Counted from the stretch's first letter, positions 31,138-31,981 are shown. The stretch is DNA of 64,000 bases from a virus (IMGVR_UViG_2718218305_000006); one strand, 5' to 3'. Notes: a model not told the origin generated them from the sequence alone. Translations and numbers: made by a program.

Positions 31138-31547
31138 GGCGCCCCCTTAACTCTCAGTAATGGATTGATAAGACTGGAAAAACATGCATTACCTCCTTTT
31201 ATACACGTTTGCTATTTTTATTGCAATGCCTCACCTGTGGGCACTTAGAAAGGTGAGATTCTGATGAGTCTTTAACTGATTGAATTCGTTCCAATGTGGG
31301 AATCCCACATCGGGAGAACATTACCAATAGGGATAAAAACGATTTGTGGGAAAAGGGGAGTTAAGTAAAATTGCTGCGGGTGCTTGAGGCTATCTGTCTC
31401 AGGCATGAACACCAAAAGGCAGATAGAGAAAAGCCCCAGTTAACATTACGCGTCCGGCAAGACGCTTAACATTAATCTGAGGCCATATCTATGCTCTACA
31501 CACGTAGGTTAGCCTCTTACGTGCCGAAAGGCAAGGAGAAGCAGGCT

Positions 31548-31703
31548 ATGAAGCAGTAAAAGGCGATGCTAATCGCCCTGATCGTCATCTGTTTAACCGT
31601 CATTGTGACGGCACTGGTAACGAGGAAAGACCTCTGCGAGGTACGAATCCGAACCGGCCAGACGGAGGTCGCTGTCTTCACAGCTTACGAACCTGAGGAG
31701 TAA
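31548..31703 (+). pseudogene. hok: hok/gef-family type I toxin gene with an in-frame stop at codon 4 (possible restart at ATG 31566)
   Basis: MKQ*KAMLIALIVICLTVIVTALVTRKDLCEVRIRTGQTEVAVFTAYEPEE; sequence closely resembles HokD/RelF of E. coli K-12 as recalled. Confidence 0.7.
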
Positions 31704-31981
31704 GAGACCTGGCGGGGGAGAAATCCCTCGCCACCTCTGATGTGTCAGGCATCCTCAACGCACCCCACTTAACTCGCTTCGGCGGTTTTTTGTTGTTTAT
31801 TTTCGGTGAGCGTGATGCATCTGGTTGTACCGATGTGGCTGGCTGATTCTGTTATTCAGGTGGTTTATTGCTGTTGATTGGCATGTCTTCACGGCTAGAA
31901 TCGAGGCTCTTAAGTAGCGCGCAGGGATAAGAGGGATGGCCCCCATAAGGGGAGGTGTTTATAGTTCATGGGATTTTTGTT

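Follow-up and report, generated by a model that had tools for sequence, protein, structure and literature searches.

Identity and organization of the locus

The window analyzed here is the whole 64,000-nucleotide stretch of viral DNA IMGVR_UViG_2718218305_000006, and the element in question is a hok/sok toxin-antitoxin locus at 31290-31760, in which the frame of the Hok toxin is interrupted at its fourth codon. Modules of the hok/sok type have been under study since the 1980s. The original prediction, made from the sequence alone, had recognized in this region a type I toxin locus of the Hok/Gef family, and both the Rfam and the Pfam matches agree with this assignment: the Rfam model sok (RF01794), which models the sense-strand leader, matches 31378-31553 with 117.1 bits (gathering score 59), and the Pfam profile HOK_GEF (PF01848) matches the 45-amino-acid peptide that can still be read behind the interruption with 82.2 bits (cut-off 22), covering positions 2-42 of the 42 profile positions. 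When the stop codon is repaired, the resulting 51-amino-acid toxin is identical to HokD of Escherichia coli. At the nucleotide level, the hok region has about 93% identity with the annotated mokW/hokW/sokW locus of phage 933W, and the sole 100% match over the 511 nucleotides of the locus is found in E. coli O157:H7 strain Balcarce_24.2, whose genome contains six hok-like places.

The gene order around the locus comprises replication genes, DUF1627, DUF977, a divergent PP2C phosphatase-Ser/Thr kinase pair, hok, DUF968, rusA and the Q antiterminator; the host element is a lambdoid prophage of E. coli O157:H7, and the locus lies in its early (replication-to-Q) region. At the sequence level the locus is a complete hok/sok module of the hokD/hokW type, which belongs to the HokD/HokW subgroup of a known system, with nothing outside known biology. 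The feature that is missing from the module is an uninterrupted toxin open reading frame (ORF) of about 50 codons with its own Shine-Dalgarno (SD) sequence and ATG. The component elements are the following:

31344-31371, plus strand: putative hok promoter, with a weak -35 box TTGTGG (31344-31349) and a -10 box TAAAAT (31366-31371) that ends 6 nucleotides before the 5' end of the mRNA
31378-31791, plus strand: full-length hok (mok-hok) mRNA, from the conserved 5' end GGGUGCUUGAGG to the T-run after the 3' hairpin
31378-31390, plus strand: translational activator element (tac), which pairs with fbi in the fold of the full-length RNA
31429-31499, minus strand: gene for a Sok-like antisense RNA of 71 nucleotides, mapped from the annotated sokW of 933W
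31491-31559, plus strand: truncated mok frame of 22 codons, MLYTRRLASYVPKGKEKQAMKQ followed by the stop, with the SD sequence GAGG at 31479-31482 and in frame with hok
31506-31534, minus strand: putative Sok promoter, with -35 box TTGCCT (31529-31534), a 17-nucleotide spacer and -10 box TAACCT (31506-31511)
31548-31559, plus strand: original hok start, with the SD sequence AAGGAG at 31533-31538, ATG at 31548, AAG CAG and the premature TAA at 31557-31559
31566-31703, plus strand: residual ORF of 45 amino acids, corresponding to Met7-Glu51 of HokD (MLIALIVICLTVIV...AYEPEE), with the transmembrane helix and the C-terminal part
31753-31765, plus strand: fold-back inhibition element (fbi), CCUCAACGCACCC, complementary to the 5' end of the mRNA
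31771-31791, plus strand: 3' hairpin CTCGC-TTCG-GCGG followed by a T-run, the likely end of the transcript

The premature stop codon and the mok and hok reading frames

That the toxin gene is interrupted by a stop at codon 4 (MKQ-stop) had been proposed at the outset, and this is evident both in the plus strand, which reads ATG AAG CAG TAA AAG GCG ATG CTA ATC from 31548, and in the translation of this frame, MKQ-stop-KAMLIALIVICLTVIVTALVTRKDLCEVRIRTGQTEVAVFTAYEPEE-stop. The change had been described as being of the CAG-to-TAG type, but this description has to be corrected, as the stop codon is TAA and comparison with the hok loci of related genomes gave CAA at codon 4 in every close intact allele. 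The lesion is a C-to-T transition at 31557 (T31557), which converts CAA to TAA.

The ORF starting at ATG 31491 (MLYTRRLASYVPKGKEKQA...), which had been overlooked in the earlier analysis, is mok. In phage 933W, mokW and hokW share one frame and one stop codon, with mokW having 19 extra codons in front; the frame opened by ATG 31491 has the same 19-codon lead as the annotated mokW, passes the hok start and ends at the TAA as a predicted leader. In the intact sister allele, Mok reads straight through to a length of 70 amino acids. Since mok shares the frame of hok, the TAA ends both of them, mok after 22 codons and hok after three. The stop codon lies 22 nucleotides outside the Sok promoter and 58 nucleotides outside the Sok RNA.

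Three codons beyond the stop, ATG 31566 opens in frame the 45-amino-acid ORF with the transmembrane and C-terminal parts that the original prediction had indicated. The RefSeq record for this ORF is WP_044703989.1, annotated as a protein rather than as a pseudogene; PGAP names it "Hok/Gef family protein", and the full-length 51-amino-acid product of the hokD group is absent. The intact sister alleles are named hokD by PGAP (WP_000813254.1). Since neither the 45- nor the 51-amino-acid form reaches the cut-offs of the NCBIfam hidden Markov models, these leave the difference in PGAP naming unexplained.

Promoters, antisense RNA and mRNA folding

The -10 block of the putative hok promoter is kept in the 933W, Rac and YB14-1 alleles; a consensus promoter scan missed this promoter, whose -35 box agrees with the consensus at three of six positions. 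The minimum-free-energy fold computed for 31378-31791 has -161 kcal/mol and pairs 31378-31389 with 31753-31767, and the inverted repeat I2 (31384-31401 and 31741-31758) backs the pairing of tac with fbi. In a 3'-shortened RNA, the 5' end is predicted to refold locally.

The predicted Sok RNA begins with a single-stranded 5' tail, followed by a long hairpin and a U tail; its fold has -28.6 kcal/mol, and its gene overlaps the mok start codon by 9 nucleotides. The -10 box of the putative Sok promoter ends 6 nucleotides before the 5' end of Sok, which is the canonical spacing, and the promoter block is unvarying across all the aligned alleles.

At the other end of the transcript, the 3' hairpin was not called by a simple terminator scan. 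Its stem is weaker than that of YB14-1, and the same 3' haplotype is common beside intact hokD in many O157:H7 genomes. An isrK-like match at 31712-31791 (20 bits, gathering score 50) was dismissed, as it consists merely of this hairpin and its T-run.

A structural effect of C31557T on the mRNA was also considered and rejected. In the predicted fold base 31557 pairs with G31671, and the change from a C-G to a U-G pair raises the fold energy from -163.1 to -161.0 kcal/mol, a cost of 2.1 kcal/mol that leaves the fold unchanged. As read from the sequence and its predicted folds, all the RNA-level parts of the module (promoters, tac/fbi, Sok gene and mRNA fold) are unchanged in the TAA allele.

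As a separate observation, codon 47 of hok (TAC, Tyr) lies within the motif UUACGAA at 31685-31692, and this motif is intact in the broken copy.

Predicted consequences for toxin production

In an intact module of this kind, the stable hok mRNA would be silenced by pairing of its 5' tac with its 3' fbi element, and slow trimming of the 3' end would let it refold; translation of mok would then open the hok start site, leading to a 51-amino-acid membrane toxin, and the short-lived antisense RNA Sok would block toxin synthesis by pairing over the mok start. In the present copy the transition at 31557 would stop mok at 22 codons and hok at three. The hok mRNA and Sok RNA would presumably still be made, with toxin output predicted to be null or nearly null. 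The locus is thus quite probably a recent, strain-private loss-of-function allele, toxin-null or nearly so, of one of about six hok copies, with a presumed loss of toxicity.

Several lines of evidence support this reading. Upstream of ATG 31566 the only SD-like sequence is AAGG, which ends 2 nucleotides before the ATG, so that no usable SD sequence is available. Such a spacing is too close for initiation in E. coli. The ATG itself is predicted to be paired within a 6-bp hairpin (31562-31577, -9.5 kcal/mol). A product starting there would be devoid of K2 and K5, the sole positive charges before the helix, and would begin directly with the hydrophobic helix; in the Hok protein of plasmid R1, the single substitution K2E abolished toxicity and left the protein undetectable (PMC9841398). 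In the same toxin, 18 of the 20 possible one-step stop codons were recovered as loss-of-function changes (PMC9841398), and a Hok construct carrying a stop codon was non-toxic in overexpression assays (bioRxiv 10.1101/2025.08.07.668861).

Suppression or readthrough of the stop codon was rejected as a way of restoring the toxin. No tRNA genes were detected by ARAGORN, either in the window or in the matching RefSeq stretch, and the sole tRNA-like match of Rfam, at 35484-35543, was weak.

Some points weigh against complete inactivation. Behind the stop, the ORF is without any damage, and its ATG lies only 6 nucleotides past the TAA and in frame, so that terminating ribosomes could reinitiate there. 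Translation of mok and hok would bring ribosomes to this place: in R1, coupling needs mok to be translated only as far as the hok start region, and a stop in mok placed after the hok start still permits it (PMC9841398). Since R1 coupling survives such a stop, delivery of ribosomes to 31566 would be expected here as well. In addition, the 45-amino-acid product covers almost the whole HOK_GEF profile, as reported above, and Met7 is conserved in 118 of 119 loci of the IMG/VR sample. The literature searched yielded no experiment on a Met7-initiated HokD or on N-terminally shortened forms of HokD, Gef or HokW.

These points would fit an attenuated toxin, in which reinitiation at ATG 31566 produces a Hok protein of 45 amino acids, without the first six residues, that inserts into the inner membrane and exerts a weak toxicity under the control of Sok. 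However, the lack of a usable SD sequence, the hairpin around the ATG and the loss of both lysines all oppose this explanation, and the allele is private and young, with no sign of having been maintained by selection; we regard it as unlikely. The original prediction had left inactivation and attenuation evenly balanced; a restart at ATG 31566 is mechanistically conceivable, as it had supposed, but the evidence leans to inactivation.

A different role for the locus may be envisaged in which only the antitoxin matters, the Sok RNA silencing matching hok mRNAs from other copies or from incoming phages or plasmids, as a form of anti-addiction or immunity. No change has affected the Sok gene, its promoter hexamers or its target region, the genome contains six hok-like places, and the mok type of the locus, MLYTRR, and with it the target of Sok, ranks first in frequency in the IMG/VR sample (25 of 119 loci). 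However, five chromosomal Sok RNAs failed to silence R1 hok (PMC9841398), so that cross-protection appears to need a close sequence match, and there is no evidence of selection for this state in an allele that a single genome carries and that one mutation separates from intact alleles. Only a slight chance is therefore given to this role.

Inactivation of the toxin would have a small biological weight, since it concerns one broken hok copy among about six in one O157:H7 strain.

Age, haplotypes and frequency of the allele

Apart from Balcarce_24.2, the nearest full-length matches are 98.6% identical, with CAA at codon 4 and seven differences, five of which fall in the 3' untranslated region and the terminator. 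Further decay of the locus was considered on this account and rejected, as many O157:H7 genomes with intact hokD carry the 3' segment 31690-31840 with 100% identity. Pairwise alignment assigns the 5' half of the locus to the YB14-1 allele and the 3' half to the E32511/7.1_Anguil allele; since this 3' haplotype occurs elsewhere beside intact hokD, the locus is a recombinant of two common alleles. Within the shared segment 31418-31707 there are two private positions, the nonsense change C31557T and the synonymous change A31604T in an Ile codon. Because these are the only private positions there, the nonsense mutation seems to be a single recent change on a common background.

The hok locus can also be viewed as a recombination joint, with the YB14-1 haplotype upstream of about 31418, the E32511/7.1_Anguil haplotype downstream of about 31707 and a conserved core between them. 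The hok/sok core may act as a stretch of homology at which lambdoid prophages exchange DNA.

The frequency of the two alleles was determined in 5,426 complete E. coli genomes by megablast of a 55-mer with the variant base at position 28, an arrangement in which the 28-base exact word seeds only on carriers of the respective variant. The T allele was found at 9 places in 8 genomes, and the C allele at 9,213 places in 4,643 genomes. A later scan added E110019 as a T-allele genome, so that TAA at codon 4 is present in 9 of the 5,426 genomes, on three haplotypes. The haplotype of the present locus occurs with TAA in one complete genome only; the APEC O1-type haplotype lies between queH and a doc-family toxin gene, and the E110019-type haplotype lies after a Q gene and has more than 100 differences from this locus. 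Since the T alleles occupy different haplotypes and prophage contexts, the CAA-to-TAA change must have arisen at least three times.

These data also bear on the eventuality that T31557 was miscalled in the single assembly in which it occurs and that the gene is in reality intact. The T on this haplotype is indeed present in only one complete genome, and the neighbouring private change at 31604 is likewise a single-base one. However, substitutions outside homopolymers, such as this one, are the rarest type of assembly error, and the same CAA-to-TAA change is found on two other haplotypes in eight other genomes, which makes an error of sequencing or assembly very improbable.

In the IMG/VR sample, whose loci were pulled by an exact internal 33-mer, 117 of the 119 usable loci have an intact ORF of 51 amino acids; the two others comprise a locus with a stop at codon 38 and a rearranged one.

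Lesion spectrum of hok in complete genomes

A look-up of the exact 45-amino-acid product returned about 600 contigs from many prophage contexts. The lesions upstream of it, all before Met7, were ATG>ACG, a 1-nucleotide deletion in the A-run, TAG at codon 3 and TAA at codon 4. At first sight, this recurrence, to which ATG>ATA can be added, would favour a restart at Met7. However, a look-up by product finds only those lesions that leave the product, and scans independent of it were therefore made of the same 5,426 genomes. Segments with one lesion each were concatenated so that every 28-mer spanned the lesion, with 24-nucleotide flanks and 4-nucleotide spacers mismatching on both sides; concatenated 55-nucleotide segments give false hits when a spacer base plus 27 wild-type bases recreates the 28-mer of an unsampled haplotype. 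The nonsense scan found 26 places in 25 genomes:

TAG at codon 3: 2 genomes
TAA at codon 4: 9 genomes
TGA at codon 16: 2 genomes
TGA at codon 33: 10 genomes
TAA at codon 47: 2 genomes

The scan for start-codon and homopolymer lesions found 31 places:

ATG>ATA: 13 places
ATG>ACG: 6 places
insertion of A in the A3 run at nucleotide 78: 10 places
deletion of C in the C3 run at nucleotide 28: 4 places

None of the complete genomes had the deletion in the A-run (A4) that is known from draft assemblies. In terms of distinct lesion types, 4 of the 13 possible substitutions in codons 1-5 were recovered, versus 3 of 17 downstream, a difference that is not significant. In terms of places, substitution lesions in codons 1-5 amount to about 31 versus 14 downstream nonsense changes; when the surveyed indels are included, the figures are about 31 in 18 nucleotides versus 28 in 135 nucleotides, with an incomplete survey of downstream indels. 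This excess is not read as an enrichment, because of the copies of shared alleles, the dense target offered by the start codon and the incompleteness of that survey. One-step nonsense alleles account for about 0.3% of the hok copies in complete E. coli genomes. Prophage hok ORFs are thus tightly kept intact, which fits a function of hok for the phage, as reported for hokW. A published Hok census set aside the coding sequences with internal stops, which were 2.6% of the unique hok coding sequences (bioRxiv 10.1101/2025.08.07.668861).

An enrichment of N-terminal lesions, or a convergence on the Met7 isoform, was consequently rejected, as the pattern stems from the look-up by product. The lesions are rare, with comparably low counts for each kind, spread along the gene and not significantly concentrated before Met7, which is an ordinary decay spectrum. 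It is accordingly quite improbable that the small lesions in question (ATG>ACG, ATG>ATA, TAG at codon 3, TAA at codon 4 and the 1-nucleotide deletion in the A-run) yield a weakly active, Sok-controlled Met7 isoform by termination-reinitiation, with the present allele as one instance. If the 45-amino-acid restart product were active, it would represent an uncomplicated way of adjusting a type I toxin in nature.

With regard to annotation, the Met7-initiated remnant is called "Hok/Gef family protein" by RefSeq/PGAP in many genomes with a damaged hok start, and ATG>ATA alleles still carry the hokD name. Counts of hok toxins based on annotation are slightly inflated, since 45-amino-acid remnants are listed as intact proteins.

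A further kind of remnant, seen in E. coli IAI1 (NC_011741.1, 1686312-1686939) and in about 20 more genomes, keeps the mok/Sok half, but its sequence breaks after GGCTAT inside the hok start codon and runs on into unrelated DNA. The joint falls at the same base each time and results from a deletion or insertion that is either recurrent or inherited.

The upstream palindrome

One more element had been described in the leader of the toxin gene:

31294-31310, intergenic, between the divergent kinase gene and hok: perfect palindrome with 8-nucleotide arms around one base, ATGTGGGA-A-TCCCACAT

Its sequence and position are as originally given, but it does not belong to the leader, as it lies upstream of the hok promoter; since the hok mRNA has its conserved 5' end at 31378 (the start of the Rfam model, in tac), the palindrome is 68-84 nucleotides upstream of the transcript. 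The inverted-repeat scan lists it as I3, with arms of 11 nucleotides that are 91% complementary. Its presence is confined to alleles with the kinase-side flank (YB14-1); the 933W and Rac alleles do not have it. The window contains 21 perfect palindromes with arms of 8 nucleotides or more and loops of 0-5 nucleotides, versus about 6 in Markov shuffles, so that a single one is unremarkable. Its absence from other hok alleles and its not being statistically unusual led us to reject it as a part of the hok/sok module. A possible role for it is that of a protein-binding site serving the divergent kinase operon.

Neighbouring genes and other features of the window

On the other side of this intergenic region, a PP2C-family phosphatase (238 amino acids) and a eukaryote-like Ser/Thr kinase (264 amino acids) are encoded at 29643-31137 on the minus strand, with an overlap of 17 nucleotides, and are transcribed away from hok. 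The kinase matches PADLOC models of anti-phage defence kinases (mad6, 128 bits; PD-T4-6, 111 bits; Stk2, 87 bits), whereas none of the PADLOC models matched the phosphatase. The cassette is present in only some of the prophages with this hok allele, e.g. in YB14-1 but not in 7.1_Anguil.

Small RNAs of the prophage cluster at 34508-35885, and the matches above the Rfam gathering thresholds are c4-a1b1 and the C4 antisense RNA at 34508-34709, isrK at 34521-34597, STnc100 at 35630-35823, the anti-GcvB small RNA AgvB at 35824-35885 (minus strand) and DicF at 23021-23072 (minus strand). The weak, partial tRNA match at 35484-35543 scores 37 bits and spans model positions 7-64. PGAP places a tRNA-Met at about 36428-36498 (11139-11209 in the matching RefSeq stretch), downstream of a DNA methyltransferase; at this site ARAGORN finds no tRNA and Rfam gives no match at E<=0.01.

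Other palindromes of the window include three with 8-nucleotide arms and 4-nucleotide loops, spaced by 19 nucleotides, at 35792-35849, in or beside the STnc100/AgvB region, and two overlapping perfect palindrome pairs at 20121-20153.

Comparison with known systems

The hokW-sokW locus of 933W and of the Sakai prophage Sp5 is an experimentally shown type I toxin-antitoxin pair, which speeds lysis and phage release after induction (PMC8621323). It shares with the present locus the promoter -10 box, tac, Sok, the in-frame mok, the toxin ORF and fbi, and both are carried by lambdoid prophages of E. coli O157:H7. The two differ in the C-terminus of the toxin (...AVFVDYESEK in HokW and ...AVFTAYEPEE here), in several bases of the 5' tail of Sok and in their place in the phage; moreover, hokW is intact, whereas the present copy has TAA at codon 4.

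HokD (RelF) of the Qin prophage of E. coli K-12 is identical to the repaired 51-amino-acid toxin. According to Pedersen and Gerdes in 1999, hokD of K-12 is reportedly devoid of mok and sok as well as of the 5' regulatory elements. Unrelated sequence takes the place of the upstream mok/Sok part in the relBE-hokD context, while here the full regulatory set is found with a broken ORF.

The hok/sok (parB) system of R1 follows the same logic, with a stable mRNA folded back by tac and fbi, a coupled mok and a Sok promoter inside mok (PMC9841398), and it encodes, as does the present locus, a membrane toxin of about 50 amino acids with a single helix. R1 Hok has no Met at position 7 and is 44% identical to HokW (PMC8621323). 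The R1 mok starts 19 codons before hok and encodes 70 amino acids, versus the 52 of Hok (PMC9841398); these lengths suggest that it is read in a frame different from that of hok, unlike the shared frame seen here. In addition, the R1 system is plasmid-borne and has been shown to act in post-segregational killing. Finally, degenerate hok loci of the same class as the one described here occur in complete E. coli genomes, with stops at codons 3, 4, 16, 33 and 47 and with start-codon and frameshift alleles.

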